Positions 11,234-44,599 of a DNA stretch of 64,000 nucleotides are shown one piece after another; the stretch's first letter is position 1; the number at the start of each line of letters is the position of its first letter. The DNA is taken from assembly GCA_963719245.1 (NCBI GenBank), contig CAVRBG010000006.1:78905-142904 (forward strand), given 5' to 3'. The notes beneath the pieces are model-generated. The model saw only the letters and a list, made by a program, of their open reading frames with translations, ran no database searches and had not been told where the DNA came from. The translations under genes and the position numbers were made by a program. The stretch comes from an uncultured Actinomycetes bacterium (lineage in GTDB: Bacteria; Actinomycetota; Acidimicrobiia; IMCC26256; DASPTH01).

Positions 11234-12062
11234 TGGTCGGCCGGAATGACGCAGACAGGTCACCTTCACCCTCGATCTCGAGGACCACCGCCCGTCGGCC
11301 GACGCCGAGGAGCGCTACCCCGCGCTCACGCGGCAGGTGCTCGACTTCCTCGACGCCCGCGACACCCGCGGCACGTTCTTCGTCGTCGGCGAGACCGCCG
11401 ACGACCATCCCGACCTGATCGCCGAGATCGCCCGGCCGCGGCCACGAGATCGGCCTGCACGGTTGGCGTCACCAGCCCCTCACCGAGCTGTCGCCGGCGT
11501 CGTTCCCCGCCGACGTGATCCGGGGCAAGGCCCGGCTCGAGGAGCTCGCGGGCACGCCGGTGCGTCGGCTTCCGGGCCCCGACGTTCTCGCTCGTGCCCG
11601 AGTCCGCGGTGGGCGGTCGACGTGCTCCGCGACGCCGGCTTCACCTACTCGTCGAGCGTGCTCCCGGCGCGGAGCCCGCTGTTCGGCGACCCGACGCTGC
11701 CCACGACGCCGTTCCGCTGGCCCAACGGGCTCGTCGAGCTGCCGTGCCCGGTCGTGCGCGACCGGGGGGTCGGGCTCCCCTACCTCGGTGGCGTGTACCT
11801 GCGCGCGATCCCGGGGGCCGCGTCGGCCGCCGCCCGGCGCAGCGTCGGTCGCGACCAGCTGCTGTGGATCTACTGCCACCCGTACGACTTCGACCCCGGC
11901 GAGGAGTTCTGGGTCGTCCCCGACGCCGGTCGGATCGGCAGCCGGCTGCTCTGGTACAACCGCCGCCGCACGTTCGCCAAGATCGAGGCGATGCTGCGCG
12001 GCCGCGCCGGTCCTCCGCTCGCCGAACGTCTCCCCGAGGTCCCCGCCGCCACCCATGTCTGA
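11233..12062 (+). pseudogene. Polysaccharide deacetylase family protein with a DUF3473-like C-terminal region; about 4 frame changes
   Basis: The ATG overlaps the upstream stop (TGATG). Pieced sequence: MVGRNDADR / VTFTLDLEDHRPSADAEERYPALTRQVLDFLDARDTRGTFFVVGETADDHPDLIAEIAR / GHEIGLHGWRHQPLTEL..IRGKARLEELAGTPV / GFRAPTFSLVPESA / WAVDVLRDAGFTYSSSVLPARSPLFG..LWIYCHPYDFDP.. (ORF 11337..12062). Confidence 0.7.
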
Positions 12063-12792
12063 TTCCGACTTCACCCAGCTCGAGATGGTGCACCGGCTCC
12101 CGCCGGCGACCCTCGTCGACCGCTTCGACTACCTGCTGCGAGCTCGCGACGGCACGACGCGTCGTGCACGTCGGCTTCGTCGACGCCGGCTGCCAGATGC
12201 TCAACGAGCAGTCGGGCGCCTGGCTGCACGAGCACCTCGCCGCGCAGCGCCTCCGAGCTGGTCGGCCTCGACCTCGACACCGCCGGCGTCGACGACGCCC
12301 GGCGACGCGGGTACGAGGCCTACGCGTCGACTGTCGCGACGTCGACGCGGTGCGCGCGCTCGGGTCGCCGCCGGCCGACGTCGTCGTCGCCGGCGAGGTG
12401 ATCGAGCACCTCGACGATCCCGGCGGCGTTCCTCGACGGCGATGCACGCGCTCGTCGCGCCGGGCGGGCTGCTCGTCGTCACCACGCCGAACGCCAGCGG
12501 TCTCGTGAACGCGGCCGCGCTCTTCGGGCAACCTCGAGGTGAACCACCCCGACCACGTCGCGCTGTACACGTGCACGACCCTCGACACCATGCTCGTCCG
12601 CCACGACTGGCAACCGGTCGAGCACGCGGTCTACCTGCAGCAGGTGAAGAGCAGCGGCACCGACACGCGGAGCCGGGTGCTCGCCACCGGCGCCCGCGCC
12701 GTCCTCGGCGCTCGAACGCCTGCTGGCCCGGCTCGGCCGCCCGTACGCGGCCGACGGGCTGATCGTCACCGCGCGTGCCGACGTCAGCCTGA
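12055..12792 (+). pseudogene. Class I SAM-dependent methyltransferase; about 6 frame changes; 3' end uncertain
   Basis: The ATG at 12055 overlaps the deacetylase stop by 8 nt. Pieced sequence: MSDSDFTQLEMVHRLPPATLVDRFDYLL / ELATARRVVHVGFVDAGCQMLNEQSGAWLHEHLAAQ / ASELVGLDLDTAGVDDARRRGYEAYA / VDCRDVDAVRALGSPPADVVVAGEVIEHLDDPG / MHALVAPGGLLVVTTPNASG / NHPDHVALYTCTTLDTMLVRHDW.. The stop could not be fixed unambiguously. Confidence 0.55.
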
Positions 12793-13155
12793 ACTCGTCC
12801 CCGCCCGCGGTCCGAGGCGCTCCTCGAACTCCTCGCGCAGCAACGCGTGCTCCTCCGCGAGCGCGCGCGTGCGATCTTCCAGCCGCGAGAGCTCCCACGA
12901 GAAGTGCAGCACCAGCACCAGCAGGAAGCTCAACGCCAGCAGCATGAACGTGGCCGGCGGGTAGCCGATCCCGAAGAGGTCGGAGAGCCACTCGAGCAGG
13001 TCGGGGAAGACGGCGAGCACCGCGAGGCCGAGGCCGATCGAGAACCAGAGCACCGAGTACTTCGCCCGCAGCCGGCGGCTGCGCACCAGGTGGATGATGA
13101 ACGCGATCACCGCCGCCGCGAGCACGATGATCAGGATGTGGGCCTCGGTGCTCAT
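12784..13155 (-). CDS. DUF2304-family small membrane protein (usual partner of a GT2)
   Basis: This is the tail of ORF 12784..13851(-): MSTEAHILIIVLAAAVIAFIIHLVRSRRLRAKYSVLWFSIGLGLAVLAVFPDLLEWLSDLFGIGYPPATFMLLALSFLLVLVLHFSWELSRLEDRTRALAEEHALL.. It is 123 aa. The ATGA overlap is with the stop of the upstream GT2 frame. Confidence 0.7.
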   Translation of the reverse strand: MSTEAHILIIVLAAAVIAFIIHLVRSRRLRAKYSVLWFSIGLGLAVLAVFPDLLEWLSDLFGIGYPPATFMLLALSFLLVLVLHFSWELSRLEDRTRALAEEHALLREEFEERLGPRAGTSSG

Positions 13156-13918
13156 GTCGTCCTCGCTCGCTGTCGTCGCGGCTCGCCGTGCGCCGGGCGC
13201 GCTGGTTGCGGCTGGTCGTCGAGACCAGCAGCACCACCAGCAGGCGCACGTAGTAGTAGACGAGCTTGAAGTTGCGGGTGCTCGGGCGCGCCGCCGGTGC
13301 GGCCGCGCATGTTGGCCGGCACCTCCTCCACCCGGAACCCCGCGTTGCACGCCTGCACCAGCGCCTCGACCGAGTCCATGTACTCCACCGGGTAGTTCTG
13401 TCGGCGAAGTACTCGAGCATCGGGCGCGAGAACGCGCGGAACCCGGAGCTGGTGTCGGTGAAGCTGCTGGCGGACCAGCACCTTCACCAGCCACTGCAGC
13501 ACCTTCATCGCCCGGCGGCGGATGCCGCTCACCGAGTAGGTGACCGCGCCGCCCTCGGCGAAGCGGCTGCCGATGACCATGTCGGCGCCGCGGTCGAGGC
13601 CGTCGAGCAGCGCCTGCACCGCGAGGGGGTCGTGCTGGCCGTCGGCATCGAACTGCACCGCGCGCTGGTACCCGTGGCGCACCGCGTACGTGAAGCCCGG
13701 TGCGCAACGCGCCACCGATCCCGAGGTTGAACGGGAGCACCGCGACGTGGACGCCCGCGGCGTGCGCGAGCTCGGCGGTGCGGTCGGTGGAGCCGTCGGA
13801 CACGACGAGCACGTCGTAGTCGGGCGTCTGCTCGGCGAGCTCCTTGAGCACCGCGGGCAGCGACTCCTCCTCGTTGTACGCCGGGATGATGACGAGCGCG
13901 CGTGCGCACGCTGGTCAC
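13152..13918 (-). pseudogene. GT2-family glycosyltransferase (polyprenyl-phosphate sugar synthase / DPM1-GtrB-like); 5 or more frame changes
   Basis: Pieced from ORFs 13529..14230, 12784..13851, 13152..13715 and 12479..13420: ALVIIPAYNEEESLPAVLKELAEQTPDYDVLVVSDGSTDRTAELA..LPFNLGIGGALRTG / FTYAVRHGYQRAVQFDADGQHDP..MVIGSRF / FTDTSSGFRAFSRPMLEYFA / NYPVEYMDSVEALVQACNAGFRVEEVPANM / STRNFKLVYYYVRLLVVLLV. The GTG at 13916-13918 overlaps the upstream stop. Confidence 0.7.
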
Positions 13919-17907: not shown

Positions 17908-17933
17908 CCGGCTCCGGATCGGATCAGCTGGAG

Positions 17934-24237: not shown

Positions 24238-24293
24238 GCTCGCCCGCGCGCCCGGCCGCGATCGCGCCAGTGAGCGTTCAAGGCTAATCCGAC

Positions 24294-24322
24294 GGATGTC
24301 GACCCAAGTATGGATGTCGACC
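24294..24322 (+). repeat. Perfect 11-bp direct repeat GGATGTCGACC x2 (period 18 bp) spanning two in-frame ATGs of the GH43 gene
   Basis: Read directly: the copies are at 24294-24304 and 24312-24322. Each contains ATG plus the GTCGAC palindrome. Confidence 0.6.
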
Positions 24323-25981: not shown

Positions 25982-26030
25982 ACGGCCTCGGTACCGTCCA
26001 CCTGTCGCGCGCCTGTGCCAGCATGCGGCG

Positions 26031-29033: not shown

Positions 29034-29062
29034 GCACCGATCAAACCATGCGGGTATGACAG

Positions 29063-31423: not shown

Positions 31424-34400
31424 GACAGGCTCGGCGGAGTCGGTTCGGTACCGCCGCGCACCCGCTCGACCACGAGGTCGGCGAGCAGGAGGATCACAGC
31501 CAGCCACACGACGTTGTTGATGCCGTAGAACTGGCCGGGCCAGTCGAGGTCGGCCGGGTAGTCGTGGCGGTACTGCTGCACCACGACGTAGAGCGCACAG
31601 GCGGCGAGCGCCACCGGCGCGCCGAGGGTGATGAGGAAGCGCAGCCGTGGGAGGCAGGCCACCAGCGCGACCAGCGCGCCCGCGACGAGACCGACCCACC
31701 AGCTCGCAAGGACGGCGCCGATCACCCCGACCCCGAGCGCGGCGAGCACCACGACCGCAATCCGCGGGCGCGCTCCCGGCGCGACCAGGGGGCTCTCGAT
31801 CTCGGCCGCCTGGTCGTCGAGGGGCACGACGTCGTCGCTGCGGTCACTCCCGCGCTTCCGCCGGAACGAGAGGAACAGGCACAGCAGCAGTGCCACCACC
31901 GAGATCCCGAGCGCGATCCACACCGTCCGTTGCGGCGTCCACCGCAGCGTCACCGAGAAGCTGCCCGACGGCGGCTCGACCAGCCAACCGTTGGCGTAGC
32001 CGTCGACCAGGGTCGACCCGCCCACGTCCTTCCCGTCGACGGTGGCTTCCCAGCCCGCATTGTCACTCTGCCCCAGCACCAGCCAGAAGGGCGTGCCCCG
32101 CTGCGCTCCGCGCACTGACAGCTCGAGCTTCGAGCTCCCCTTGCTCGTGACGCGGACCCGCGGCGTGGCGGCATCTGGCGCGGGCGGCTGCGTCACCGAC
32201 GGCGGCAACTTCCCCCGCTCGCCGAGCCTCATCGGCGCGCCACCGGCGTTCGAGCCGAGCACGAGACCGTCGACGTCGACGCCGGTCTCGGTCCCCGCCT
32301 GTGCGCGCAGCACGTGGTTCCCACGGTCGATGCCCGCGATGTCGTCGCCCGCCACCGAGCACAGCTGCGCGTCCAGCGCACCACCCGCAGCGGCGGTCGC
32401 CGTCGAACCGCTGAGCGAGAGACCGACGTCCTGGCCGTCGACGCTGAGGATGCCGATCCGGCACACGGAGGGCAGCGCCGCCGGCATCGGCGCCCGTTGC
32501 ACGCCGGGCAGGCCCACCTCGGCCAGTGCGACCGGCATCGCAGTCGACACCCGCTCGTGGTAGTCGATGGTGTCGATCGGACGCGTCCCGGTGACGGTGA
32601 TCCGCACCTCGGACCCGGTGAGCGGGGCGAACTGCACCGGCGCCGCGACCGGACCGCTGCCGACCGCAGTGTCGGTGATCGCGGGAAGGTCGACCGTGCG
32701 CGACTCCCCGCCGGCGTCGATCCGCACCTGCGTCGGCACCGAGTGCTTCCCGTCGGCCACCACCTGCAGGTCGAGGTGGTCGAAGGTGACGGGCGCGGGC
32801 GTCACGACGTCGACCCACTGCCCCACCGGCGCGCCGAACGCGGTGGTCCACGCGGTCGACGGGTCACCGTCGAACGCCGACGACCCCGCGCCTGGATGTC
32901 GGCCGGGAGGTGCTGTGACGACGTGACCGTGATGCCACCTGACACCACACCGGGGATGCCGAGCACACGGTCGATCACGTCGTCGGGCGCGGCGGCCGCG
33001 AGCCGGGCGGTGCCGCGGATCGCGAACAACCGGTCGTCGGGCACCCGGAACCGTCGCACCAGCGCGAGCTCGTCCTCGGAGAAGTGCGGCGGGACCTCGA
33101 CCGTGCGCAGCCGCGTCATCTGGTAGACGAGCGGACGGTCGGCGGCCTGCGCGCCGGCGGCGTCGACCAGGTCGGTCGGCATGCGCACGATCTCGTCGGC
33201 GTGCACGTTCTCCGCTCCCGGGGCATCGTCCTTCAGCCGGATCTCGGCGAACCCGACGCTGTTCGAGTACGGCTGCGACGACTCGTCGCCCACGTTGGTG
33301 TCGGTGATCGTGATGTCGACCTGGTGGAACTTCCGGGACGGAAAGGTGACGGTCTGGCCGTCGGCCGTACGCGACGCGTCGGTGAGATCGACGGAGATCG
33401 GCGCCCCCCCGTCGAACGAGAGCTCCACCTGGGTGAGATAGCGCTGCGTCGGGCCGACGAGCGGCTGGACGAGGTTCACCTGGCCGGTCGTGATCGGCTG
33501 GTCGAGGTCGAGCCGGAGCTTCTCACCGATGACCTTGGCGTGTGCCCCCACCTCCCACTGCGTGCTCGTGTCGCCGTCGAAGGCGCGCGACCCCCGGTAC
33601 TCCGGTTCGTAGAACCCGGGATCGCCGTACCTGCTCGTGCTCACCGCGACGCCCGGCGTCTCCACGACGGTCTGCGTGTCGGTCCCCGCGTCCGGGAACA
33701 CGTCGAGGCGGTTGTCGTTGTCGTCCGTGGTCAGCGCGGTCTGGTCGACGCGCTCGGTCTCCCCCGCGGTGTCACGCACGGCCGTCCACCGCCGCGCCCG
33801 CTTGCGGTTCGAGTCGGTGACGATCAGCACCGAGTTCGGCTGCGCGATCTCCGACTGCAGCTTCGCCGGGTCGTCGGCGAACGTCGCCGCGTAGAGCACC
33901 ACCCCGCTGCCATCGAGTGCGCCGATGGTCGCGAGGTCGACCAGACCTTCACCGTCGCCCGACACGACCAGGGGCGCCGACGCGTCGGCGCTGCGCACGA
34001 TCGGCGGCGCATTGTCGACCGTGAAGATGCTGACCGGCGGTGGCTCGGCGGCGTCGGCGGGCAGACCGAGTTCGAGCTCGTCGTCCTGCGCGACGCGCAG
34101 CGGCTCCACCTGGTGGTCGCCGAACTTCTCGGGTCCGGTGAGACCGGACGGGACCGGATCGGTCAGCAGCCGCCACAGGGGCGCCGCCCGCGCCAGGTCG
34201 TAGCGGTCGGTCTGCAGGTCGGCGCGGTACAGGATCGCACCCGCACTGATCAGCCGGGCGAGCGGTGCCAGCGCGGCGGCGTCGAGCGTTCCCTCCTGCA
34301 TGCGGTGGTCGAGCGCGTTGAGCAGGTCGGCCGACGCCGCCGAGCCCCACGGCACCAGCTCCCGGGCCACGTAGGGCCGGTCGGTGAGACCGGGCGTGAT

Positions 34401-35871
34401 CGGGTCCACGGTCTGACCCCACCGGTACGCGGCGAAGTCGGAGCCGGGGATCTCGAGCACCCGCGTGTCGTGCGAACCGGCATCGAGCGCGGCGATGGCG
34501 TCGGTCCAGTACTGCGGGATCGTCTCGTCGCGGGTGAGGTCGTCGGTGTAGAAATTGCCGGTCCAGAGCGCGGGCAGGTTCACCACCGCCAGCACGATCA
34601 GCAGGCCGGCGAGCACGAGCGTCCGCAGCGACACGCCGCGCACCTGGCGCCCCCTCCCCGCCCAGGCGACCCCCAGCGCGTTCACCCCGACCCCGAGCAG
34701 CACCGCCAGGCCCAGCGCCACCAGCGGCACCGCCCGGCTCGTGCTGCGCAACGCGAGTCCGAAGCTCGACGACTCCGCGAACGACTTGAACAGGCCCCCC
34801 AGGAGCGACGGATCGTCGTACGGGTTGGCGCCGACCGCGACGACGACCCCGACCACCGTCAGCACCACGAAGTACCGCGCGGTGACGCCACTTCACGCAC
34901 ATCGCCGCGAGCAGCGCCAGCACCGGGATGGCGAAGCTGACCACCAGCAACCCGAGGTTCTGCGTGTAGGGCACGCTGCCCTCGGTCCAGTGGCCGACGC
35001 GGTCGATGCCGTAGAAGAACCAGTACCCGAGCCCGCGCAGCACCTCGCTCGGCATCGACGAGATCGACACGACTTGCAGCGTCTCGGTGAACTTCAGGAT
35101 GTTGAGCCCGTAGCCGCCCTGCGCCCACAGGCCCGCGATCCACCACAACGACGTGACCACCGTGAGCAGTCCGATCCGCGCGGTCACGCCGAGCGCGCGT
35201 CGCCAGCTCACCTCGCCGGCCAGCACCGCGTAGACGATCCACAGCACCGGCGCGATGCCCGCGAACACGAGCGCGGTCGCGTTCACACCCCCGACGATCT
35301 GCACGACGATGGCGAAGATCGCCGCGTACTTCCACGTGCCGCGCTTGTCGCCCGCCCGTAACGCCCGGATCGTGAGTGCCAACATCCACGGCAGGCCGGC
35401 CCACGGCAGCAGGATGACGGAGATGCGCGACGAGAAGTCGAGTGTGTACGGCGTGAGCATGAACACGACCGTCGCCACCGCGATACCGGGACCGCGCACG
35501 TGCAGCGTGCGTAACAGGAACAGCACTCCGAGCGCGGCCCCGAACAGGATCGAGCCGAGCCAGAGCCGCTGCGACACCCACGCGGGTAGGCCGAGCAGGT
35601 GCAGGGCCCAGTAGTACGGCCCCATGGGGAAGAGGTACCCGATGTTCTGGTGGGTGACCGTGCCCATCCCGATGTTCGGGTCCCACATCGACACCGCGCG
35701 CTCGAGCAGGCGACCCGGGTCGAGGTAGAGGTAGCTCTTGGTGTCGGCGACGACCCGCCCCGGCTTCGTGAGCAGCACCGGCACGTAGGCCAGGAGCGCC
35801 AGCACCCCGTAGCCGAGGATCCGCAACCGGCGCTCGCGCACGTGGGTGGCGACCGGTTCGGTCGTCGTCAT
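31420..35871 (-). pseudogene. AftD-like (DUF3367 family) giant GT-C glycosyltransferase, paralog 2; 2 frame changes
   Basis: Three ORFs make up the gene. ORF 33949..35871 is the N-terminus (PGRVVADTKSYLYLDPGRLL, GYLFPMGPYYW). ORF 32802..34868 is the middle (ANPYDDPSLLGGLFKSF.., SRAFDGDTSTQW). ORF 31420..32826 is the C-terminus (GQWVDVV.., FWLVLGQSDNAGWEATVDG, LRWTPQRTVW plus TM helices). The joins are near 34878 and 32888 (a C4 run). It is colinear with paralog 1, at an identity I estimate by eye as roughly 55-60% in the aligned stretches. Confidence 0.8.
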
Positions 35872-35883
35872 GATCCGGCGATG

Positions 35884-37167
35884 CTAGGCCGAGGCCTCGA
35901 CCGCGACCGGGCGCGTGTCGGGTTCGGCCGGTCGACGGAACCAGTGGTCGACCGCGACCGCTGCGAGCACGACCAGGCTCACCTCGGCCGGCGTGCGGAA
36001 GCGCGTGATCCCGTAGATCGCGGCCGCGGTGACGGTCACGATCACGAACTGCGCCACCAACGGCGTGATCTCCACGCGACGGCGCCGCAGCTGCACGCCA
36101 CCGACGACCGCGCACGGCACCAGGATCCAGAACGCGAAGAACCCCGCCCACGACACCTCGACGTCGCGGCCCTCGTTCACGTTGTAGTTGGCCATCAACC
36201 CCGGTGCGTACAGGCTCCACACGCGCGCCACCCGCACGCCGACGACCACCGGGAGACGGCCGAGGTGGTCGCGGATGAAACGCAGTCCGTCCTCCCGCAG
36301 TGCGTTCGACACCACCGACCGATCGCCCTTCGGTACCGGGAAGCCCGCGCAGTCGAGCGCCCAGAGCCCGGTGCCCTCGCCGTAGTAGGTGCGGTGGAGG
36401 TTGGCGCCGCAGATGGTGAGGCCGTCGTTGGTGGAGAACAGGACCGGCTCGTCGAACCGCGTGAGGTTCGCGACCAGCCACGGACTCACGACCGCGAACG
36501 CGGCCACGCACGCCAACAGGAAGAGGCCGACCTGACGCTTGAACGGGAACTGCTTCAGGAACAGCGTGACCGGCAACACCATCAGCGGGAGGAGCAGGCC
36601 GAGCTCCGCCCGGGCGAGCATGGCGAGCCCGCACGCGGCGCCGACCCACACGGCCGTGCTCCAGCGCGGGCGCGGATGAACCGGTACGCGAGCAGGATCG
36701 CGAGCGCCACCGCGAGCGTGGCCAGCGTCTCCGACATCACCAGCCCGTCGTTGATCCAGAGGTTCGGGTACAGCGCGGCAATCCCCGCAGCGATGAGACC
36801 GGCCCGGTTCCCGGCCACCGCGCGCCCGATCAACCCGATCAGCAGCACCACGCCGGCGCCGAACACGGTCATGGTGAGGCGTTGCGCGAGGAGGTGGCTG
36901 CCGCCCTCGTCGAACCGCTCCATGACCCACGACGTCGGGGTGAGCACCGAGCGCGGTGAGCGGCGGATGCTCGGCCTGCTGCGAGCCGTCACGGAAGTCG
37001 GTGAAGCCGTGGCCGCGGGCGATCGTGTTGGCCTGCGCGTTGTAGTAGATCTGGTCACCGAGCACCGGTTCGGTGCGCTTGGCCACCATCACGTAGCCGA
37101 CGCGCAAGGCCAACGCGCCCAGGACGATGACGAGGAGCACGCGCCAGAACGTGCGGTTGTCGGTCAT
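35884..37167 (-). pseudogene. GT-C fold glycosyltransferase, PMT_2/ArnT-like (paralog 4); 2 frame-restoring frame changes
   Basis: ORF 35884..37167(-) carries both the N-terminus (LGDQIYYNAQANTIARGHGF, EHPPLTAL) and the C-terminus (MLARAELGLLL, VANLTRFDEPVLFST, IYGITRFRTPAEV). The middle ~300 nt reads correctly only in ORF 36582..37058(-) (LIGLIGRAVAGNRAGLIAAGIAALYPNLWINDGLVMSETLATL). Confidence 0.75.
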
Positions 37168-37170
37168 CCG

Positions 37171-38199
37171 CTAGATCAGTCCGCGTCCAACTGCGTCGAC
37201 GACCCAGGGCACGACCTCGTCGAGCATCTCGTCGAGGCTGGTGGTGGCCTCGAAGCCGAGCACCGTCCGCGCCTTCTCGGTGGCGGGCACGCGCTTCTGC
37301 ACGTCGTGCTCGAACGGGTCGTCCGAGACGGTGCGGAAGGGCACATCGCCGCGGAGGCGCCGCCAGAGGTTCTCGGCCAGCTCCAGCACCGTCGTCGACT
37401 CCGCGGTGGAGAGGTTGAAGTCGTCGTTCAACGCGGCCGGATGCTCCATCGCGGTCACGATGCCCCGGGCGAGGTCGCCGGCGTAGGTGTAGTGCCGCAC
37501 CTGGCCGCCGTCGCCGAGGATGTGGAGCGGGTCCTGGCCCTTCACGATCTTCTGCACCAGGTCGGGGACCACGTGGCTCATCGCGAGCTTGACGTTCCCG
37601 CTGGCGACCTCGACGTCGCTGAGGGCGCGCATCTCACCGGTGCCCACGCAGTTGAACGGCCGCACGATCGTGTAGGGCAGACCGTGTTGCTGCAACGCAG
37701 CGCGCGCGTAGTACTCGACCGCGAGCTTCTGGAACCCGTACGAGGAGAGCGGCGGCGGGATCTCGAGCTCCTGGCCCTCGTACGACGGCCACGACGGCGT
37801 GCTCTCGTAGACCATCGACGAGCTGAGGTACGTGACCTTCTGGAGCGTCGCTTCCGAGTGCGCGGCGATGGCGGCGTCACAGGACGCGGCCATGATCCGT
37901 TCGTTGGTCGCCAGCAGGTCGTAGGCGAAGGTGTGGAAGTAGGAGATCCCACCGATCATCGCCGCGCCCGCGATCATGTGGTCGCAGTCGCCGAGGAGCT
38001 CGCCGAGCAACGCCGCGTCGCGCGCGTCGCCCTCCATCAACGTGTAGCCCGGGTCGTCGTCGTACGACTTGCGCACCGGGCCGTACTTCGAGTGGTTGTC
38101 GACGCCGACCACCTCGTAGTCGCGCCGCAGCAGCTCCTCCACGACGTAGCCGCCGATGAACCCGGCCGATCCGGTGACGAGCACCCGGCCCGTGCTCAC
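37171..38199 (-). CDS. NAD-dependent epimerase/dehydratase family protein (extended SDR acting on nucleotide sugars)
   Basis: This is the tail of ORF 37171..39507(-), starting at GTG 38199 (GTGA overlap with the GT2 stop): VSTGRVLVTGSAGFIGGYVVEELLRRDYEVVGVDN.., and YGFQKLAVE (YxxxK). It is 342 aa and intact. Confidence 0.85.
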   Translation of the reverse strand: MSTGRVLVTGSAGFIGGYVVEELLRRDYEVVGVDNHSKYGPVRKSYDDDPGYTLMEGDARDAALLGELLGDCDHMIAGAAMIGGISYFHTFAYDLLATNERIMAASCDAAIAAHSEATLQKVTYLSSSMVYESTPSWPSYEGQELEIPPPLSSYGFQKLAVEYYARAALQQHGLPYTIVRPFNCVGTGEMRALSDVEVASGNVKLAMSHVVPDLVQKIVKGQDPLHILGDGGQVRHYTYAGDLARGIVTAMEHPAALNDDFNLSTAESTTVLELAENLWRRLRGDVPFRTVSDDPFEHDVQKRVPATEKARTVLGFEATTSLDEMLDEVVPWVVDAVGRGLI

Positions 38200-38943
38200 G
38201 CCTTCCCGCTCTCGACGCGGGCCCGGAGCTGGTCGAGCGTGAGCTTGGGCCCGAAGGCGAAGCGGTACCAGCCGAGGTAGCGCGGCAGCCACGACACGAC
38301 CTTGAAATTCGACGTGCCCTGCGCGCGCTCGAGCCAGATGGTCGGGATCTCGGCGGTGCGCAGCCGCAGTCGACGGGCCTTGGCCACGAGCTCGATGCCG
38401 ATCTCGAAGCCGGTGTCGGAGTCGATGCCGACGTCGCGGACGAAGTCGGTGGAGTAGGCCTTGAACGAGTTGGTCGCGTCGCGGGTGCCGACGCGGCGCG
38501 AGCCAGTAGAGCGACAGCCCCGCCAGACGCGACAGCGCGCTCTTCAGCGCCGGGCCGCCGATCTGCTGGCCACCGCTCATGTAGCGCGACGCGGCCGCGA
38601 TCACGACGCCGCGGTCGACGAGCTTGCACAGCTGGTCGATCTGCTCGGGGTCGTCGCTGCCGTCGGCCATGGTGACGACGGCCACCGGGGCGCGCGACTG
38701 CTCGATCCCCCACCGGATGGCGCGGGCCGGCCCCTTCCCGTGGCCGTTGAGCACCGGCAGCACCCGAGGGTCCTTCTCCGCGTACTGCTCGAGGAAGGGC
38801 AGGGTCGAGTCGCCGGGATCGTCGTAGACCGCGAGCAGCTCACACGGTTGCTCGACGCCGGCGAGGATGCGGTCGAGGCAGGGCACGATCTCTCCGCCCT
38901 CCTCGTACACCGGGATCACGATCGAGAGCGCGGGCGCGGTCAC
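38196..38943 (-). CDS. GT2-family polyprenyl-phosphate glycosyltransferase (DPM1/Ppm1/ArnC/GtrB-like); one frame change
   Basis: The GTG at 38943 overlaps the dehydrogenase stop (GTGA). VTAPALSIVIPVYEEGGEIVPCLDRIL..LAVYDDPGDSTLPFL..MADGSDDPEQI..AASRYMSGGQQIGGP..LSLYWLA joins near 38497 to RVGTRDATNSFKAYSTDFVRDVGIDSDTGFEIGIELVAKARRLRLRTAEIPTIWLERAQGTSNFK.. (ORF 38196..38387). Confidence 0.8.
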
Positions 38944-40130
38944 ACGCGCACCCCGTCGTCGCGCAGGTTCCAGATGTCGACGACCGGCACGTCGAGCGCG
39001 AGGTCGGCGTACACCCGGTGCGGCGCGCCGATCACCACCAGATCGGCCCGGGCCACGACCTCGTCGAGCGGCGTGAGGTCGGGGTCGACGGTGACGTAAG
39101 GGTCGGTGCAGAGCACCTCGCTCCCCTTGAACTTGAGGATGCGCTTGAGCTTGTAGCTCAGGCTGGAGCGGATGTCGTCGGATTCGCCCTTGAACGACAT
39201 CCCGAGGATGCCCACCGTCGACGCGGGGAGGTCGAAGCGGCGCTCCATGCTGGCGACGACATAGAGCGGCAAGCCCTCGTTGATGGTGACGCTCGCCTGG
39301 CCCAGGTTGAAGTTGTTGTTGTTGAACGCGGCGAGCTGCATCGTGTCCTTGAAGAGGCACGGACCGGCGGCGAATCCGGCCCCGGGGAGGTCGGCGGCAC
39401 GCGGGTAGTTGTGGCGCACCGCCTGGCGCACGCGCTCGTAGTCGATGCCGAAGTCGTTCGCCATCATGAACAGCTGATTGGCCGCGGCGAACTTGATGTA
39501 GCGCCACGCGTTGGTGAACAGCTTGGCCAGCTCCGCTTCCTCGGGCGAGAGGTACACCACCTCTTCGGTGAGGTTGCGGAAGAGCTTGGTGGCGCGCTCC
39601 TGGGAGCGATCGGTGCGCCCGGCCACGATCTGGGGCAGCTCGGCCAGCTCCTGGAGCGCCTTCCCCTCGGCGATGCGCTCGGGGCAGAAGGCCACGTCGA
39701 CGTCGAGGCCGAGCCGCGCGACCAGTCGCTCGACGACGGCGGTCACGCCCGGGTACACCGTGCTGCGCAGCACGAGCAGCTGCCCGTCGGACAGGGAATC
39801 GGCGATCTCCTCGATCGCGGTGTGCACCGCTCCGAGGTCCGGGTTGAGGTGCTCGTCGATCGGGGTGCCGATCACCACCACGACGTTCTCGGCGCGCCGG
39901 ACCGCCTCCCGGTCGAGCGTGGCCTCCAGCCGGCCGGCGGCGAGCGCGGCGCGCAACGCCTCGGGGGTGCCGGGCTCGACGAACGGCATCTCGCCCGCGT
40001 TCACCGCGTCAACGGCGTCAGGCCGCACGTCGTAGAGCGCGACCTGAAGGCCGCGGGTGGCGAACGCGAGCCCGAGCGGCAGGCCGACGCGGCCACATCC
40101 GCCCACGATCGTGACGTCGTACGACTGCAT
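38940..40130 (-). CDS. Nucleotide-sugar 6-dehydrogenase (UDP-glucose/GDP-mannose dehydrogenase family)
   Basis: This is the tail of ORF 38940..41396(-), from MQSYDVTIVGGCGRVGLPLGLAFATRG. It also has CPERIAEGKAL, a catalytic-Cys region (FAAGPCLFKD) and a C-terminal GMSFKGESDDIRSS. It is 396 aa and intact. Confidence 0.85.
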   Translation of the reverse strand: MQSYDVTIVGGCGRVGLPLGLAFATRGLQVALYDVRPDAVDAVNAGEMPFVEPGTPEALRAALAAGRLEATLDREAVRRAENVVVVIGTPIDEHLNPDLGAVHTAIEEIADSLSDGQLLVLRSTVYPGVTAVVERLVARLGLDVDVAFCPERIAEGKALQELAELPQIVAGRTDRSQERATKLFRNLTEEVVYLSPEEAELAKLFTNAWRYIKFAAANQLFMMANDFGIDYERVRQAVRHNYPRAADLPGAGFAAGPCLFKDTMQLAAFNNNNFNLGQASVTINEGLPLYVVASMERRFDLPASTVGILGMSFKGESDDIRSSLSYKLKRILKFKGSEVLCTDPYVTVDPDLTPLDEVVARADLVVIGAPHRVYADLALDVPVVDIWNLRDDGVRV

Positions 40131-40158
40131 CACCGGTTCACGCGCCTGGTCTCGGGAA

Positions 40159-40182
40159 CCGCCCGATGGTAGCCACGGGCGG
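40159..40182 (-). other. GC-rich intercistronic stem-loop directly after the DUF2142 stop codon
   Basis: CCGCCCG (40159-40165) pairs with CGGGCGG (40176-40182) around a 10-nt loop. No U-tract follows on the minus-strand transcript. Confidence 0.3.
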
Positions 40183-40183
40183 C

Positions 40184-41650
40184 TCAGTACATCCGGAACG
40201 TGACCGACACCAGGAACACGAGGAGCACCGGCACCAGCAGCACGGCCAGGGGGAACCGGGCGGTCGCGGCGCGGGTCCAGCCCCAGCGGGGCGCGCCGAT
40301 CGCCACCGGGATGAGCGCCGAGAGCGGCACCAGGTACCGCGGTTGCACGCCGCCCACCTCGTCGAGCCCGGGCGCGGTCCAGTAGATGTAGTTCGCCGCG
40401 ATCACCCCGACGAGCCCGACGAGCAGCACCAGTACCACCAGCACGCGCTGCAGCCAGTGCAGGTTGGCCTCGGGCTCGCGCCGGTCGCGCTGGATGGAGA
40501 CGACGGCGTAGATCGCCACGATCGCCATGGCCAGCGCCCACGGCCAGTGCGTCGCACTGGGCCCGACGTCGACGAGGGTCTTCAGCCAGTCGGGCGTCTG
40601 GTTCACCAACGTGCGCACGGTGTCGGCGGCGAAGTCCCAAGGCGCGTGGAGCAGCCGGTCCTTCTGGTAGTGGTCGTCGACCTTGATGCCGAAGTACCCG
40701 GCGTCGGTCTTCCAGAGGTTGCCGACGGCCTGGTTCCACGCCACCGACACGATCACGCCGAACACCGGCGCCAACGCGATCGGCCACAGCTCGCGCCGCT
40801 CGTAGCGACGACGCAGGCCGAGGAGCGGCAGCAGGTAACAGAACGCGATCACCACGTACACCGGCTTGCAGAGCCCGAGCACGGCGCTGAGCACGAACGC
40901 CTCGATGATCAGCGAGCGCGCAGTGGTGCCTTCGGGTGGGTCGAGGGCGCGCAGCGCCGAGGAGAGCACGAGCAAGGACACGGCGGTGGTGAACGCGTCG
41001 TGCGACACCGACGACGCCGACTGGAACACCGCCACCGGTACCAGGCCGATCGCGCACAGCGCCCACTTGGAGCGGGGCGCCCGCTTGATCGCCGCCCACA
41101 CGAGGGCGATGTAGGCGATGAGCACCGCGAAGCGCTCGACCACCAGCATGCCCTCGGCGTCCATGCCGAGCTGGCGGGTCACGAACGCGGCCGCGGCCTG
41201 CGGCGCGTAGGGCACCGGCGACCCGAAGGTCGAGAAGGTGACGAACCCCTCCGAGGCATCGCCGGGACAGCGCGGAATCGTCGCCGCGGTCACCTCGATG
41301 CTGCGGTCGGGCCGGACGCCCTGGAGGCTGAGCGTGTGCAGGAAGTACTCGGCACTGGCTCGGCGCATCTGCAGGATCACGTCGAGGGGGAGGCACGCGC
41401 CGCTGAAGTCGGTGCCCGGCTTCTTCTCGGGCACGAACTGACCGGTGGAGATCTGGTACGCGCGCGAGAAGTGGGCGGTCTCGTCGATGCCGCCGAAGTG
41501 CGGGACCACGCAGGCGAGGTACACGCCGGCCGCGATGGCGAGCACGAGGAAGGTGCGCGCGGGATCGCGGAACACGCCGAGCGCTCCCCCGCCGCTCCGC
41601 CGCCGCTCGGCGCGGGACTCCGGCGCCGCCGCGTCTTCGGCAACCGTCAT
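40184..41650 (-). CDS. DUF2142-family polytopic membrane protein (predicted GT-C-like glycosyltransferase)
   Basis: ORF 40184..41806(-), trimmed to MTVAEDAAAPE (start 41650). It has the signature HFGGIDETAHFSRAYQISTGQF after the first TM segment, and about 10 further TM segments. The frame is intact. Confidence 0.75.
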   Translation of the reverse strand: MTVAEDAAAPESRAERRRSGGGALGVFRDPARTFLVLAIAAGVYLACVVPHFGGIDETAHFSRAYQISTGQFVPEKKPGTDFSGACLPLDVILQMRRASAEYFLHTLSLQGVRPDRSIEVTAATIPRCPGDASEGFVTFSTFGSPVPYAPQAAAAFVTRQLGMDAEGMLVVERFAVLIAYIALVWAAIKRAPRSKWALCAIGLVPVAVFQSASSVSHDAFTTAVSLLVLSSALRALDPPEGTTARSLIIEAFVLSAVLGLCKPVYVVIAFCYLLPLLGLRRRYERRELWPIALAPVFGVIVSVAWNQAVGNLWKTDAGYFGIKVDDHYQKDRLLHAPWDFAADTVRTLVNQTPDWLKTLVDVGPSATHWPWALAMAIVAIYAVVSIQRDRREPEANLHWLQRVLVVLVLLVGLVGVIAANYIYWTAPGLDEVGGVQPRYLVPLSALIPVAIGAPRWGWTRAATARFPLAVLLVPVLLVFLVSVTFRMY

Positions 41651-41660
41651 CGAGCTTCGA

Positions 41661-42122
41661 CTACTCGATGGTGTCGACGATGAGCACGCTGCACGGCGCG
41701 TGGTGCGACACCGTGTTGGGAACGCTGCCGAGGAAGCGTCGGCCGCCCTGCATGCCGCGGTTGCCGACGACGATGAGGTCGGCCTCCAGCTGCGACGCCA
41801 TGTCACAGAGGACCTCGGCCGGGCTGCCGAAGCGGGCGTGGGTCTCGATCCGGGTGTCGCCGGCCCGACCGGCGGTCTCGGCGGCGCGTCCGAGCGTCTG
41901 CTCCAGCTCCTGCCTGATCTCGTCCTCCCAGTTGAGCTCCGCCGCGACCGGTGCCGCGGCCGCCATCTCCCCTGCCGCCAGGGCCGTGGGCGAGAGCGGC
42001 TTCTGGACGGTCACGATGTGGAGGACCGCCTCGGGCTGGGTCGCCGCGAGCTCGGCGGCGGCGAGCACCGCCTTGGACGCGCCGACCGACCCGTCGGTGC
42101 CGACCACGATCGCCCTGAACAT
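41661..42122 (-). CDS. Universal stress protein (UspA family)
   Basis: ORF 41661..42122(-): MFRAIVVGTDGS..ADLIVVGNRGMQGGRRFLGSVPNTVSHHAPCSVLIV. The frame is intact. Confidence 0.85.
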   Translation of the reverse strand: MFRAIVVGTDGSVGASKAVLAAAELAATQPEAVLHIVTVQKPLSPTALAAGEMAAAAPVAAELNWEDEIRQELEQTLGRAAETAGRAGDTRIETHARFGSPAEVLCDMASQLEADLIVVGNRGMQGGRRFLGSVPNTVSHHAPCSVLIVDTIE

Positions 42123-42161
42123 TCGCCGCCTCCGCCAGACCGGGGATCCGTCTCGGAGAAG

Positions 42162-43127
42162 CTACCCCCGCGCGGTACGCGACCGGAGGAGCGCCCGGAT
42201 CTCCGCCTCGTGGTACACGACGGCCTCGGGCAGGGTGACGGTGCCGAGGTCCTGGAGACCGAAGTCGAGCCCGAGAGCCGGCGCAATGACGTGCGCGAGC
42301 CCCGACCACGTCACGTAGAGCACGACGGAGCGATCGCCCCGTCGACGGAAGGTGGCGCGGGTCGGAGCGTCCGCGCCGCCCGGCCCGGCCGACACCGCGG
42401 TGGTGCCGTCACCGAACGCCCAGGCGTACGCGACCGGGTGGGCCGTGACGTCGACCAGGTACCCGTCGAGCTCGACGCCGGCGCGGGCGTCAGCGAGCGG
42501 CGCCGACCAGAACCGGCTCTCGAGGTTCACGATGCCCGGCCACTCGCGAGTCCCCGGGGGTGACGCGTGCACGGTGGCGCGTGGCAACGGCGTCTGCTCC
42601 CAGATCTCGGCCGCGGTCGGCGGCTCGGACGGGAGCGGTGTACCGGGGAGAGCGCAGCGGGGCACCAGCAGCACGCCCGGTCCACCGTCGCGCGGGGTCG
42701 CGGTGTCCACGACGAAGACGCCCGCATCCGTCGCTCCCGCCGGCAACGGCGCCGGACCGTCGAGCCGGAACGCGCCGGGCGGTGCGCCCTGCAGCGCACC
42801 GACCTGGAGTGGCGCGAACGGGAAGATGGCGATGCCCGGGAGCGGCGTCACGGTCGGCACGAGGGCCGGAGGTATCGGGCCGCCGAACACCACACATCGG
42901 CCACCGGTTGCGGTGCGCTCCCACTTGTAGGTGGACACGGACGCCGGCTGAGCACTCGGCAGACCTCCGCCGGGAAATGTGCCGGCTCCCAGATCTTGCG
43001 CGGTCGCGCGGACGTGGTCGGGGCCGAGTGCACCGTCGAGACTCGTCTGCGCGACCGCGCCGGTCCCGGTCGCCATCGTGAGCGCCAGGCCCACCGAGCA
43101 GGCGAGCGCACGGGTCCGCCACCTCAT
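42162..43127 (-). CDS. Secreted Pro-rich protein with a C-terminal PKD-like segment; last gene of the Tad operon
   Basis: ORF 42162..43670(-), trimmed to MRWRTRALACSVGLALTMATGTGAVAQT (signal peptide). Its ATG overlaps the tadG-like stop (ATGA, 43124-43127). The C-terminal part reads VAYAWAFGDGTTAVSAG..FRRRGDRSVVLYVTWSG, which resembles the PKD WxFGDG..Y.V.L motif. Confidence 0.6.
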   Translation of the reverse strand: MRWRTRALACSVGLALTMATGTGAVAQTSLDGALGPDHVRATAQDLGAGTFPGGGLPSAQPASVSTYKWERTATGGRCVVFGGPIPPALVPTVTPLPGIAIFPFAPLQVGALQGAPPGAFRLDGPAPLPAGATDAGVFVVDTATPRDGGPGVLLVPRCALPGTPLPSEPPTAAEIWEQTPLPRATVHASPPGTREWPGIVNLESRFWSAPLADARAGVELDGYLVDVTAHPVAYAWAFGDGTTAVSAGPGGADAPTRATFRRRGDRSVVLYVTWSGLAHVIAPALGLDFGLQDLGTVTLPEAVVYHEAEIRALLRSRTARG

Positions 43128-43543
43128 CCGGATCGCCTCGGAGTCGCCGTCGCCGTGACCTCGACGTCGAACTCGTCGTGCGGCGCGAGGACACCGAGCA
43201 GCGTGTATCCGACGCGGCCGTGGACCACGACGGTCACGGCCTCGGTGTCGGCGCGGACGCTGACCGAGCGAAGGGCTGCGCGGTCGAGCTGTTGAGCGAT
43301 GTGATCGCGGGCGCGAGATTCGGCCACCACGGGATCGAGGAGGATCGCACCGGACGAGCGGTAGTGGGCCTCGTCGATGGCGGAGGCGCCGGCCAAAGCG
43401 GCCGCGTCGGCCGTCGCGGCGAGCGCCCTTCGCTCCGAGAACGCGCGCCAGAGGTCGAGGCTGATCCCGCCGAGCGCGAACAGCACGAGACAGATGCCGA
43501 GCAACCAGAGCGTGGTCGTGCCGGAGGCACCGCGGTGTCTCAT
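43124..43543 (-). CDS. TadG-like / Tad_N pseudopilin-type pilus assembly protein
   Basis: This is the tail of ORF 43124..44185(-): MRHRGASGTTTLWLLGICLVLFALGGISLDLWRAFSERRALAATADAAALAGASAID.. It is 139 aa and has an ATGA overlap upstream. Confidence 0.7.
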   Translation of the reverse strand: MRHRGASGTTTLWLLGICLVLFALGGISLDLWRAFSERRALAATADAAALAGASAIDEAHYRSSGAILLDPVVAESRARDHIAQQLDRAALRSVSVRADTEAVTVVVHGRVGYTLLGVLAPHDEFDVEVTATATPRRSG

Positions 43544-43959
43544 GACGGCGACGCGTAGCGATCGACCGGCTCGCGGTGGCGAGCGGTCCACGACCATGCG
43601 TCGACCGCGCCGAGCCCGGGCAGGTGCACCGCGGGCATGCGCACGGTGACGCGCGCCTCGACGTCGGCACCCGGCGTCAGCTCGCGTCCCGACGTGCACG
43701 AGAGCGTCACCGAGAGGTCGGCGGGCGGCACGCCGAGGTTGCCGGCCATCGATGCCGTGATCGTCCGCGCCGCAGCGAGGTCGCACACGCCGTCGCGCGC
43801 AGCCCGGCGGGCGACCTCGCGGCTGATGACCCGAGCGGTCACCTGGCGCTCCGACCAACCGGGCAGGGTCAGCACGAGCAGCGCCACCGGGAGGACCAGC
43901 AGGCCGAGCCCGACCACGAGCTCCGTCGCCACGAACCCCGACTCCGAACGGCGCGTCAC
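43540..43959 (-). CDS. TadE-like pilus assembly protein (second copy)
   Basis: In ORF 43540..44079(-), the GTG at 43959 (GTGA overlap) gives VTRRSESGFVATELVVGLGLLVLPVALLVLTLPGWSERQVTARVISREVARRAA.. Confidence 0.7.
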   Translation of the reverse strand: MTRRSESGFVATELVVGLGLLVLPVALLVLTLPGWSERQVTARVISREVARRAARDGVCDLAAARTITASMAGNLGVPPADLSVTLSCTSGRELTPGADVEARVTVRMPAVHLPGLGAVDAWSWTARHREPVDRYASPS

Positions 43960-44336
43960 GACGACCGTTCCTCCACGACCGACCCGGACACGGAGAACGA
44001 CCAGGACGGCACCCCGGGGATCCAGCTCGGCAGCGCGACCTGCGCCTCCGCGCGCATCGACCCGCCGACCTCGCGACACGTGACGTGCACCGAGCGACCC
44101 GCGGAGCCGGACAGCAGGTTGGCGAGCACACCTTGGGCGCGGCGTTCGCAGTCTTCCGGCGACGTGTCGAGCGCGGCGCCGGCACGCGCGCCTTCGTCGA
44201 CCGCGGCGCGTACGACGCCGCGCGCGTAGAGGTCGACGATGAAGTTGGCCATGGCGACGAACACGAACAACGACAGCGCCGTCGCCACCACGTACTGGAT
44301 GGTCGTGATGCCGACCTCGCCGACCCGCTCGTTCAG
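43956..44336 (-). CDS. TadE-like pilus assembly protein (first copy); the only in-frame start candidate is a CTG overlapping the flp stop
   Basis: In ORF 43956..44603(-), the credible part is LNERVGEVGITTIQYVVATALSLFVFVAMANFIVDLYARGVVRAAVDEGARAGA.. The sequence upstream of this lies inside flp in another frame. A CTGA overlap sits at 44333-44336. Confidence 0.6.
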   Translation of the reverse strand: MNERVGEVGITTIQYVVATALSLFVFVAMANFIVDLYARGVVRAAVDEGARAGAALDTSPEDCERRAQGVLANLLSGSAGRSVHVTCREVGGSMRAEAQVALPSWIPGVPSWSFSVSGSVVEERSS

Positions 44337-44530
44337 ACCCGGAGCTGGCCGCGGATCCAGTTCACGACGTCGAGGCCCAGCGTCTGCATGACCGCCCAGA
44401 TCGCGACGAGGGCCGCGATCCCGAGTGCGGCGTTGCCGAGCAGCTCGGCCGTGGTCATCCCCGACTCCCGGGAGGAGCGCTCCCGGCACCAACGGACGAC
44501 CTGCTGCCAACGGATCACGATCAGGTACAT
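44333..44530 (-). CDS. flp: Flp-family (type IVb, DUF4244-like) prepilin
   Basis: ORF 44333..44530(-): leader MYLIVIRWQQVVRWCRERSSRESG, then MTTAELLGNAALGIAALVAIWAVMQTLGLDVVNWIRGQL. This gives a G/xTAE-type processing site followed by a hydrophobic helix. A GAGGAG sequence lies 6 nt upstream of the ATG. Confidence 0.65.
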   Translation of the reverse strand: MYLIVIRWQQVVRWCRERSSRESGMTTAELLGNAALGIAALVAIWAVMQTLGLDVVNWIRGQLRV

Positions 44531-44564
44531 GCGGGCTCCTCGCCATCATGGTCGGGCCGGTGCC

Positions 44565-44586
44565 CGGACCGCGTTCTCGGACCGCG
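44565..44586. repeat. 9-bp direct repeat CGGACCGCG x2 (period 13) in the tadC-flp intergenic gap
   Basis: Read directly: the copies are at 44565-44573 and 44578-44586. This 69-bp gap is the only non-overlapping junction in the Tad operon. Confidence 0.4.
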
Positions 44587-44599
44587 TCGTCCACCCGCC

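Follow-up and report, generated by a model that had tools for sequence, protein, structure and literature searches.

In the Rgt system of Rhizobium and Aquifex, a UDP-glucose dehydrogenase and a UDP-glucuronic acid 4-epimerase supply the donor for the glycosyltransferases of fold class C (GT-C) RgtA-D and RgtF. In rhizobia, RgtE makes bactoprenyl-phosphate galacturonic acid and GT-C enzymes use it; roles have been described for rgtD, rgtF and rgtE (PMC7663294). In the mycobacterial galactosamine (GalN) pathway, PpgS (Rv3631), a family 2 glycosyltransferase (GT2), cooperates with Rv3632; the lipid-linked sugar undergoes deacetylation, and its transfer falls to Rv3779 (PMC9671496). Three-component glycosylation systems (GtrA/GtrB/GtrV, the lactococcal and streptococcal pairs of a GT2 with a polytopic glycosyltransferase, and the pentofuranose systems of PMC11127046) share a synthase of lipid-monophosphate sugars, a flippase and a polytopic GT-C. 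There is precedent among them for an accessory gene of the short-chain dehydrogenase/reductase (SDR) type that determines the decoration added by a promiscuous GT-C (PMC11127046). In Citrobacter youngae O2 an SDR epimerase that converts a ribofuranose side chain into xylofuranose has been proposed to act on the lipid-linked sugar. We have analyzed a locus of comparable logic in a window of 64,000 nucleotides (G+C about 71%) from contig CAVRBG010000006.1 of an uncultured soil actinobacterium. As read directly from the sequence, the minus strand between 35884 and 40130 carries four genes in series, encoding a nucleotide-sugar 6-dehydrogenase (DH), a GT2, an SDR and a PMT_2-family GT-C (Table 1). 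The conserved unit among them is the three-gene cassette DH-GT2-SDR, not the single four-gene module described in a first-pass annotation of this DNA. The cassette is an uncharacterised example of a known logic; none of its three proteins meets an equivalog cutoff.

A conserved three-gene cassette

An alignment of the SDR was used to scan genomes, one per species. At least 590 places encode a relative of this protein and the best 80 loci were analysed (loci are cited below by L numbers). Among these 80 the SDR is 72-80% identical to that of the window, and the taxa represented are Acidimicrobiia, Streptosporangiales/Trebonia, Catenulispora, Nocardioides, Micromonosporaceae (Micromonospora, Dactylosporangium and Phytohabitans), Dormibacterota and Chloroflexia. 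The order DH, GT2, SDR is kept in about 77 of the 80 loci, which come from Actinomycetota, Dormibacterota and Chloroflexota. Spacing was scored at 77 loci, and the junctions are short at most of them (70 for DH-GT2, 73 for GT2-SDR). The fourth gene of the window is not part of this pattern. None of the window-type PMT_2 GT-C, AftD and DUF2142 genes adjoins the cassette outside the window's own subclade in the best 80 loci; a PMT_2 GT-C stands beside the cassette only in one subclade of Acidimicrobiia, and about 75 other genomes carry the cassette without the window's GT-C family. Conversely, orthologues of the GT-C occur both with and without the cassette. The co-occurrence of the four-gene order with AftD-like genes, which the first-pass annotation had proposed to count, is likewise confined to the window's subclade among these loci.

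The cassette does have membrane-protein neighbours elsewhere. Polytopic proteins (at least six transmembrane segments and at least 350 residues) are immediate neighbours at 35 of 126 cassette flanks, compared with 5.3% of genes lying more than 5 kb away. They split into several families, and a Pfam scan of eight representatives gave no match. A cassette whose polytopic partners change is what one would expect of the part of a three-component glycosylation system that supplies the donor (PMC11127046). By inspection of the flanks of L004-L083, at least six families of polytopic proteins of 400-650 residues without a Pfam family lie directly beside the cassette in other phyla. Many of the cassette-flanking polytopic proteins show, by eye, an Asp/Glu-rich motif soon after the first hydrophobic segment, as in GT-C enzymes.

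Within the window the genes are tightly packed. The stop codon of DH shares a GTGA with the GTG start of the GT2 at 38943, and the GT2 stop (TGA, 38196-38198) shares another with the GTG start of the SDR at 38199. Between the SDR stop (37171-37173) and the GT-C start (ATG, 37167) there are 3 nucleotides, and 12 nucleotides separate the GT-C stop (35884-35886) from the ATG of an AftD-like gene at 35871. The first-pass annotation had placed the four genes and these junctions correctly but had overlooked three single-base disruptions of the reading frames within 35884-40130. The region is best explained as a segment of a long operon on the minus strand, within a locus for cell-envelope glycans, in an actinobacterium of the Acidimicrobiia type.

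Table 1. Coordinates and properties of the principal genes in the window
Feature	Coordinates	Strand	Remarks
Nucleotide-sugar 6-dehydrogenase (DH)	38940..40130	-	396 residues, 397 codons, intact; first gene of the cassette
GT2, polyprenyl-phosphate glycosyltransferase type (DPM1/DPMS-like)	38196..38943	-	about 248 residues; 1-nucleotide insertion at 38495/38496
Extended SDR (NAD-dependent epimerase/dehydratase family)	37171..38199	-	342 residues, intact; third gene of the cassette
PMT_2-family GT-C glycosyltransferase	35884..37167	-	about 427 residues; two compensating single-base indels
DUF2142 polytopic membrane protein	40184..41650	-	488 residues, intact; stops 53 nucleotides upstream of the DH start
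AftD-like GT-C (paralogue 2)	31456..35871	-	frameshifted at about 34876-34888 and about 32885
Second GT2, then DUF2304 (PpgS/Rv3632-like pair)	12805..13914	-	Glycos_transf_2 5e-24, DUF2304 3e-26; frameshifted
Polysaccharide deacetylase with DUF3473	11234..12136	+	Polysacc_deac_1 1.5e-16, DUF3473 4.8e-19

Predicted functions of the four proteins

Pfam recognizes the N-terminal, central and C-terminal UDPG_MGDP_dh domains in the DH, Glycos_transf_2 in the GT2, Epimerase in the SDR (4.9e-42) and PMT_2 in the frame-corrected GT-C (2e-11). Together with PDB profile matches and fold comparisons, these domains uphold the family assignments made in the first pass. The DH and the SDR were placed by ranked HMM scores, PDB scores and inspection of motifs. 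The DH passes a single NCBIfam model, TIGR03026 (281 bits, cutoff 190), which describes generic nucleotide-sugar dehydrogenases at the subfamily level. It reaches none of the NCBIfam equivalog cutoffs, whether for UDP-N-acetylmannosamine (UDP-ManNAc) dehydrogenases (score/cutoff 205/750 and 161/459), AglM (148/670), TuaD (128/700), Ugd (80/757) or TviB (77/592). Its best PDB matches are the UDP-ManNAcA dehydrogenase of P. horikoshii (4r16, 4e-50) and Cap5O (3e-43), followed by the UDP-glucose dehydrogenase 3vtf (3e-41) and CalS8; the catalytic Cys lies in the motif GPCLFKD. By these scores the DH appears closer to UDP-ManNAc-type dehydrogenases than to Ugd, yet it is far under every equivalog cutoff. 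A firm grouping with the former, which the first-pass annotation would have taken as evidence against its proposal, was not obtained.

The SDR likewise falls below every NCBIfam equivalog cutoff. GalE (TIGR01179) gives 88.5 against a cutoff of 262, the ArnA models give 38-50 bits against cutoffs of 294-777, and the UXS-type model gives 50 bits compared with 88 for GalE. In the PDB the SDR profile ranks 8vr2 first, followed by the UDP-N-acetylhexosamine (UDP-HexNAc) 4-epimerases PelX and WbgU, a UDP-glucuronic acid (UDP-GlcA) 4-epimerase and then UXS. SDR orthologues are 72-98% identical, and in 12 of them the motifs S-S-S-M-V-Y-E and Y-x3-K are invariant, as are the catalytic residues S127, Y154 and K158. 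The invariant S-S-M stands where UXS, ArnA and the 4,6-dehydratases carry T-S-E or T-D-E; the Glu at the Met position is catalytic in UXS, ArnA, RmlB and GMD. This substitution therefore disfavours decarboxylation or dehydration and favours an epimerase-type reaction. By motif the SDR looks epimerase-like without appearing to be a GalE orthologue, and it does not cluster firmly with simple 4-epimerases. The first-pass annotation had proposed a lipid-linked uronic acid or, by decarboxylation, a pentose. The motif favours the uronic acid and speaks against the pentose.

The GT2 family profile matches dolichyl-phosphate mannose synthase (DPMS; 5mlz, 1.5e-23, profile residues 2-222), GtrB (3e-11) and ArnC (2e-10), the only solved relatives that align over the full length. 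Chondroitin and heparosan synthases and other GT2 enzymes match only the first ~70-120 positions of the profile, the N-terminal Rossmann part. The protein fits the polyprenyl-phosphate transferase group (DPMS/GtrB/ArnC), as the first pass had proposed, and a grouping with processive synthases is not borne out, since these match the N-terminal ~100 residues only. In the frame-corrected protein all invariant positions of the family are kept across the junction. At the metal-motif position, M-A-D-G-S-D-D is invariant in 18 family members; it retains only the second Asp of the D-A-D of DPMS, with two more Asp downstream.

More than 100 intact orthologues of the GT-C were found (427-440 residues), and the corrected window protein is 90-91% identical to them end to end. 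The PDB holds no match at the sequence level. An AlphaFold2 model of one orthologue (P0124; pLDDT 89.4, pTM 0.89) was compared with the PDB by Foldseek, and all of the top 29 matches are GT-C enzymes: oligosaccharyltransferases come first, followed by ArnT, PMTs, ALGs, Emb and Aft proteins. AglB, STT3 and PglB match with E ~1e-6 and a TM-score of 0.53, ArnT with E 9e-5 and 0.41. The modelled fold confirms the GT-C assignment. ArnT is indeed among the fold matches, as the first-pass label "ArnT-like" implied, but oligosaccharyltransferases score better. The motif GDQIYY is conserved near the N-terminus after the first transmembrane segment, with G37-D38 invariant, and its loop is predicted to be extracytoplasmic.

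Proposed pathway and comparison with described systems

On balance we think it somewhat probable that the cassette makes a sugar acid, loads it onto a lipid carrier and feeds a membrane GT-C that decorates the envelope. The substrate, the product, the pairing of donor with acceptor and the flipping step that we infer would be as follows. The DH would oxidise C6 of a UDP-hexose or UDP-HexNAc to give a uronic acid. The SDR, with its Ser/Tyr/Lys set and no acidic residue for decarboxylation or dehydration, would most likely epimerise this product, C4 being the usual position. The small DPM1-like GT2 would then move the sugar onto polyprenyl monophosphate at the cytoplasmic face and, after flipping, a polytopic GT-C, here probably the PMT_2 protein, would add it to a glycan of the envelope. 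A plausible acceptor is the polymer that the adjacent AftD-like enzymes make. The general scheme put forward in the first pass (tailoring of a nucleotide sugar, loading on polyprenyl phosphate, flipping and GT-C transfer) fits the family evidence.

Among described systems Rgt is the closest functional analogue, having the same proposed chemistry of DH and 4-epimerase giving a UDP-uronic acid, which passes to a GT2 and then to a GT-C outside the membrane. It differs in modifying the lipid A and core of lipopolysaccharide in Gram-negatives, and its genes do not form a DH-GT2-SDR cassette; we liken the two by chemistry, not by sequence. The Arn pathway (Ugd, ArnA, ArnB, ArnC, ArnD, ArnT and ArnE/F) likewise has a dehydrogenase, an SDR, a GT2 acting on polyprenyl phosphate and a GT-C, and ArnC and ArnT appear among the top solved relatives of the window GT2 and the fold matches of the GT-C, respectively. 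However, the window SDR lacks the T-S-E triad of ArnA, oligosaccharyltransferases rather than ArnT are the best fold matches of the GT-C, and the deacetylase-family gene of the window belongs to another gene set. As the first-pass annotation had noted, there is no ArnB-type aminotransferase or formyltransferase, here among the Pfam-scanned proteins of 1-42 and 50-59 kb. That scan used stitched proteins and left aside 42-49.5 kb, which is a Tad pilus locus by homology, 52-55.7 kb and 59-64 kb.

The GalN pathway resembles the four-gene stretch in that a GT2 loads polyprenyl phosphate, a GT-C transfers the sugar to arabinogalactan and an epimerase supplies the nucleotide sugar (PMC9671496). It has no dehydrogenase, however, and its DUF2304-type partner and deacetylation step match the window's other GT2 and deacetylase rather than the four-gene stretch, since no DUF2304 or deacetylase gene lies within 35884-40130. 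The first-pass label "PpgS-Rv3779-like" is better given to the GT2+DUF2304 pair (13914-12805) and the deacetylase (11234-12136). The deacetylase noted in the first pass as lying elsewhere in the locus is indeed present but goes with this set, and in L085, as in many loci from metagenomes, a deacetylase with DUF3473 shares the locus with GT2+DUF2304. The whole GT2+DUF2304 set spans 11-17 kb of the window. Between 11234 and 19913 lie the deacetylase with DUF3473, a methyltransferase, GT2+DUF2304, an AT3 acyltransferase, an amine-oxidase-like FAD protein and two polytopic proteins, one of them with DUF7846. By analogy, the genes of 11234-19913 appear to resemble the mycobacterial GalN pathway more fully than the four-gene stretch does, and the deacetylase could be the equivalent of the deacetylation step of that pathway whose enzyme is unidentified (PMC9671496).

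The likeness to three-component systems extends to auxiliary epimerases, to interchangeable partners and to the way in which presence or absence of an accessory gene alters decoration. Here, by contrast, the synthase forms a fixed cassette with a DH and an SDR of its own, a flippase gene is not recognised, and most of the partner membrane proteins have no Pfam family. The DPMS enzymes (P. furiosus 5mlz, Ppm1/DPM1) include the closest solved relative of the GT2 and are similarly short, but their D-x-D is replaced in the cassette GT2 by the invariant M-A-D-G-S-D-D. Since the cassette GT2 is coupled genomically to a dehydrogenase, we argue for a uronic acid rather than mannose as its sugar. The literature consulted held nothing specific on AftD in Acidimicrobiia, on PDB entry 8VR2 or on polyprenyl-phosphate uronic acids in Actinobacteria.

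Disrupted reading frames

The GT2 interval is 748 nucleotides long, which is not divisible by three. Three-frame translation and mapping of a relative's protein place the frame switch near 38495/38496; compared with L003, the window carries one additional C there. The GT-C frame is lost at 36947/36948 (an extra G) and regained at about 36665-36669 (one base missing), so that ~94 middle codons are out of frame; because stop codons are rare at high G+C, the open reading frame (ORF) of 427 codons is uninterrupted despite these indels. The shifts were confirmed by mapping the intact proteins of L001 and L003 onto the window. The L001 AftD protein (1483 residues) maps to the AftD-like gene in three frames by tblastn, with shifts at ~34876 and ~32885, and the methyltransferase gene that follows is frameshifted at ~31250, which brings the indels in 31-39 kb to six. 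A Viterbi path through codon-position G+C recovers the homology-defined shifts, those of the AftD-like gene included. It adds about 30 further stop-free frame switches at 6-20 kb, several of which were confirmed by mapping L085 proteins, and has none at 39-49 kb. Across the glycan locus (6-35 kb; 6200-35900) the stop-free frame switches number about 36, and the adjacent indel-free 10 kb (39000-49300) contains the DH, DUF2142, Usp and Tad pilus genes. Strain heterogeneity or local coverage are possible causes of this uneven spread.

A consequence of the GT2 frameshift is that the N-terminal 148 codons of the gene read on into the SDR without a stop (37171-38943, minus strand). The result is a 590-codon artefactual "GT2-epimerase fusion" ORF, which automatic annotation could report as such. 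The window illustrates how indel errors of high-GC long-read assemblies can be concealed within ORFs that run on without a stop. We rejected a programmed frameshift, as the genes of relatives are uninterrupted at the same positions.

Locus variants and alternative interpretations

Locus states were compared by anchoring on GT-C orthologues. Four states occur among the close orthologues: Usp-GTC, Usp-DUF2142-GTC, Usp-DUF2142-DH-GT2-SDR-GTC (the window) and Usp-DH-GT2-SDR-GTC. The site between Usp and the GT-C is accordingly variable, with DUF2142 and the cassette independently present or absent (L084, L086, L088, L096, L148, L166, L167). Where the cassette is present in the window's subclade, it stands directly 5' of the GT-C (window, L001/L090, L003, L087, L097, L100, L101, L166), and the gap between SDR and GT-C is 3-4 nucleotides in the window, L001 and L166 and 73 nucleotides in L003. 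DUF2142 is directly upstream of the cassette in L001, L003, L087, L097 and L101 and is absent in L166. On the 3' side of the GT-C, relatives have either an AftD-like gene or a set comprising an FAD oxidoreductase, an AT3 acyltransferase, GT2+DUF2304, a methyltransferase and a deacetylase. In L085, L092, L097 and L101 the GT-C is directly or closely followed by the FAD oxidoreductase, the acyltransferase, GT2, DUF2304 and the deacetylase, and GT-C homologues at 40-50% identity mostly adjoin the GT2+DUF2304/deacetylase set. The set comes immediately after the GT-C in L085 and L092, and likewise in many loci from metagenomes. In all, GT2+DUF2304 adjoins GT-C homologues in L085, L092, L097, L101, L102, L118, L139, L141, L146, L149 and L152. 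The DUF2142 protein itself (Pfam DUF2142, 3.5e-41) gave an AlphaFold2 model with pLDDT 82.6, for which Foldseek found no match at E <= 0.001; the higher-probability ones among its weak matches are GT-C enzymes. An hhalign comparison of DUF2142 with the PMT_2 alignment was uninformative, the alignments being shallow. Streptococcal rgp loci contain DUF2142 paired with GT2 genes (PMC9746298), and the DUF2142 protein is an alternative candidate user of the cassette's lipid-linked donor. The PMT_2 GT-C may use the GT2+DUF2304 donor, the cassette donor, or both.

Several observations weigh against the pathway proposed above. GT-C orthologues 79-89% identical to that of the window occur without the cassette (L084, L086, L088, L092, L093, L096, L148, L167), and the GT-C is therefore not dependent on it. 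The cassette has no characterised member, and every substrate assignment is drawn from solved enzymes that share 25-35% identity with its proteins. Among solved SDRs the nearest, the uncharacterised entry 8vr2, carries a decarboxylase/dehydratase-type T-S-E; the GT2 has M-A-D...D-D in place of the D-A-D of DPMS and, by eye, no evident transmembrane segment; and no flippase gene was recognised. With these facts in view it is possible, if doubtful, that the PMT_2 GT-C partners the PpgS-like GT2+DUF2304 and the deacetylase (11-14 kb) in a GalN-type pathway like that of Rv3631/Rv3632/Rv3779. The cassette would then be a mere insertion between Usp and the GT-C, and its product would be used by DUF2142 or by another of the ~9 GT-C-like proteins of the window. 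The presence of all four locus states among close relatives speaks for such an arrangement, as do the gene set behind the GT-C in L085, L092, L097 and L101 and beside its 40-50% homologues, the ~75 other genomes that carry the cassette without this GT-C family, and the streptococcal pairing of DUF2142 with GT2. Set against this are the constant position of the cassette directly 5' of the GT-C in the subclade, with gaps of only 3-4 nucleotides in three loci, and the existence of L166, in which the cassette occurs without DUF2142. Moreover GT-C enzymes can take more than one lipid-linked donor (PMC11127046), and both pairings may hold.

The reaction of the SDR is a further point on which readings differ. 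It could be a UDP-glucuronate decarboxylase of the UXS/ArnA-C type, so that the cassette makes a polyprenyl-phosphate pentose (xylose or arabinose), which we regard as improbable. The S-T-S-E of 8vr2, the best solved match of the SDR profile, agrees with a decarboxylase, as do UXS scores only modestly below those of epimerases, a GH43 gene in the locus (~24.4-26 kb) and the occurrence of the cassette in Micromonosporaceae, a family with xylose and arabinose as characteristic wall sugars. The Met at the catalytic Glu position of UXS, ArnA, RmlB and GMD is invariant, however, and the UXS-type NCBIfam model scores 50 bits against 88 for GalE. At slightly longer odds still, the SDR would work downstream of the GT2, on the lipid-linked sugar, as proposed for the epimerase of Citrobacter youngae O2. 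The gene order DH-GT2-SDR would suit this, and a GalE-like SDR is known to set the identity of a lipid-linked donor used with a promiscuous GT-C (PMC11127046), but the SDR has a full C-terminal substrate domain and aligns with nucleotide-sugar enzymes over its whole length. The disrupted frames also count against an active pathway; as far as the DNA letters go they are compatible with pseudogenisation, in which the GT2, the GT-C and a large part of the glycan locus (6-35 kb) would be real pseudogenes and the pathway dead in this organism. The six indels and ~30 stop-free switches, beside 39-49 kb without any, could be so read, but we find it hard to credit. The damage consists of indels only: the 7157 aligned residues contain not one in-frame stop. 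Identity to relatives is 85-91% on either side of each shift, the shifted segments being as conserved as intact genes. Sister long-read assemblies, with contigs named in the style 'contig_N', likewise have AftD genes broken into pieces, and we place with this evidence an NCBI/ENA contig of 842,933 bp that carries a protein 100% identical to the window's DUF2142 protein. Because indels without nonsense codons occur here in an indel-ridden, long-read-style assembly, sequencing errors are the most likely source, and the frame breaks of the window are very probably long-read assembly indels and not pseudogenes.

The wider glycan locus and its significance

To our knowledge, the envelopes of Acidimicrobiia and of many soil actinomycetes are chemically almost unknown. 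The cassette, with an SDR 72-80% identical across phyla and unannotated polytopic proteins beside it, gives a handle on this chemistry: it indicates a conserved sugar donor on a lipid carrier and marks out candidates for new families of GT-C enzymes. Its cultured carriers (Micromonospora, Dactylosporangium, Phytohabitans, Catenulispora) are open to genetics and wall chemistry, intact orthologues lying for instance in Phytohabitans suffuscus NBRC 105367 (NZ_AP022871, about 5.03 Mb), and its on/off pattern among close relatives suggests strain-level surface variation of relevance to recognition between phage and host. We advance tentatively, as a speculation, a wider view in which DH-GT2-SDR is a self-contained, horizontally mobile cassette. 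It would make a polyprenyl-phosphate uronic or N-acetylhexosaminuronic acid, a donor undescribed in Gram-positive/Terrabacteria lineages, and feed several undescribed families of polytopic glycosyltransferases, these being the membrane proteins without a Pfam family that flank it in Actinomycetota, Dormibacterota and Chloroflexota, and its presence or absence would switch an acidic envelope decoration between close strains.

The locus is rich in GT-C proteins, having two AftD-like and four PMT_2 proteins, DUF2142 and two unannotated polytopic proteins, and it also encodes acyl- and methyltransferases and GH43. On the plus strand at 6234-10200 are three PMT_2 GT-C paralogues in tandem, which share 33-42% identity with the GT-C next to the cassette and are all frame-disrupted. 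AftD-like paralogue 1 (20022-26000 region, plus strand) has GT-C_AftD, F5/8-type C and CBM_AftD domains and is uninterrupted over 4158 nucleotides (19915-24072) by frame analysis, with the GH43 glycoside hydrolase gene following it; L003 and L167 have GH43 at the locus as well. Orthologues of AftD-like paralogue 2 carry Pfam GT-C_AftD. The glycan locus extends leftward through 1-5927, where there are a GT4 glycosyltransferase, a metallo-beta-lactamase-fold protein, an O-methyltransferase, another methyltransferase and an AT3-SGNH O-acyltransferase. A gene for an HNH endonuclease-domain protein (27938-29075, minus strand), with a GNAT acetyltransferase as its neighbour, lies between the halves of the locus that contain the two AftD genes, and this HNH gene could mark a point of rearrangement or insertion.

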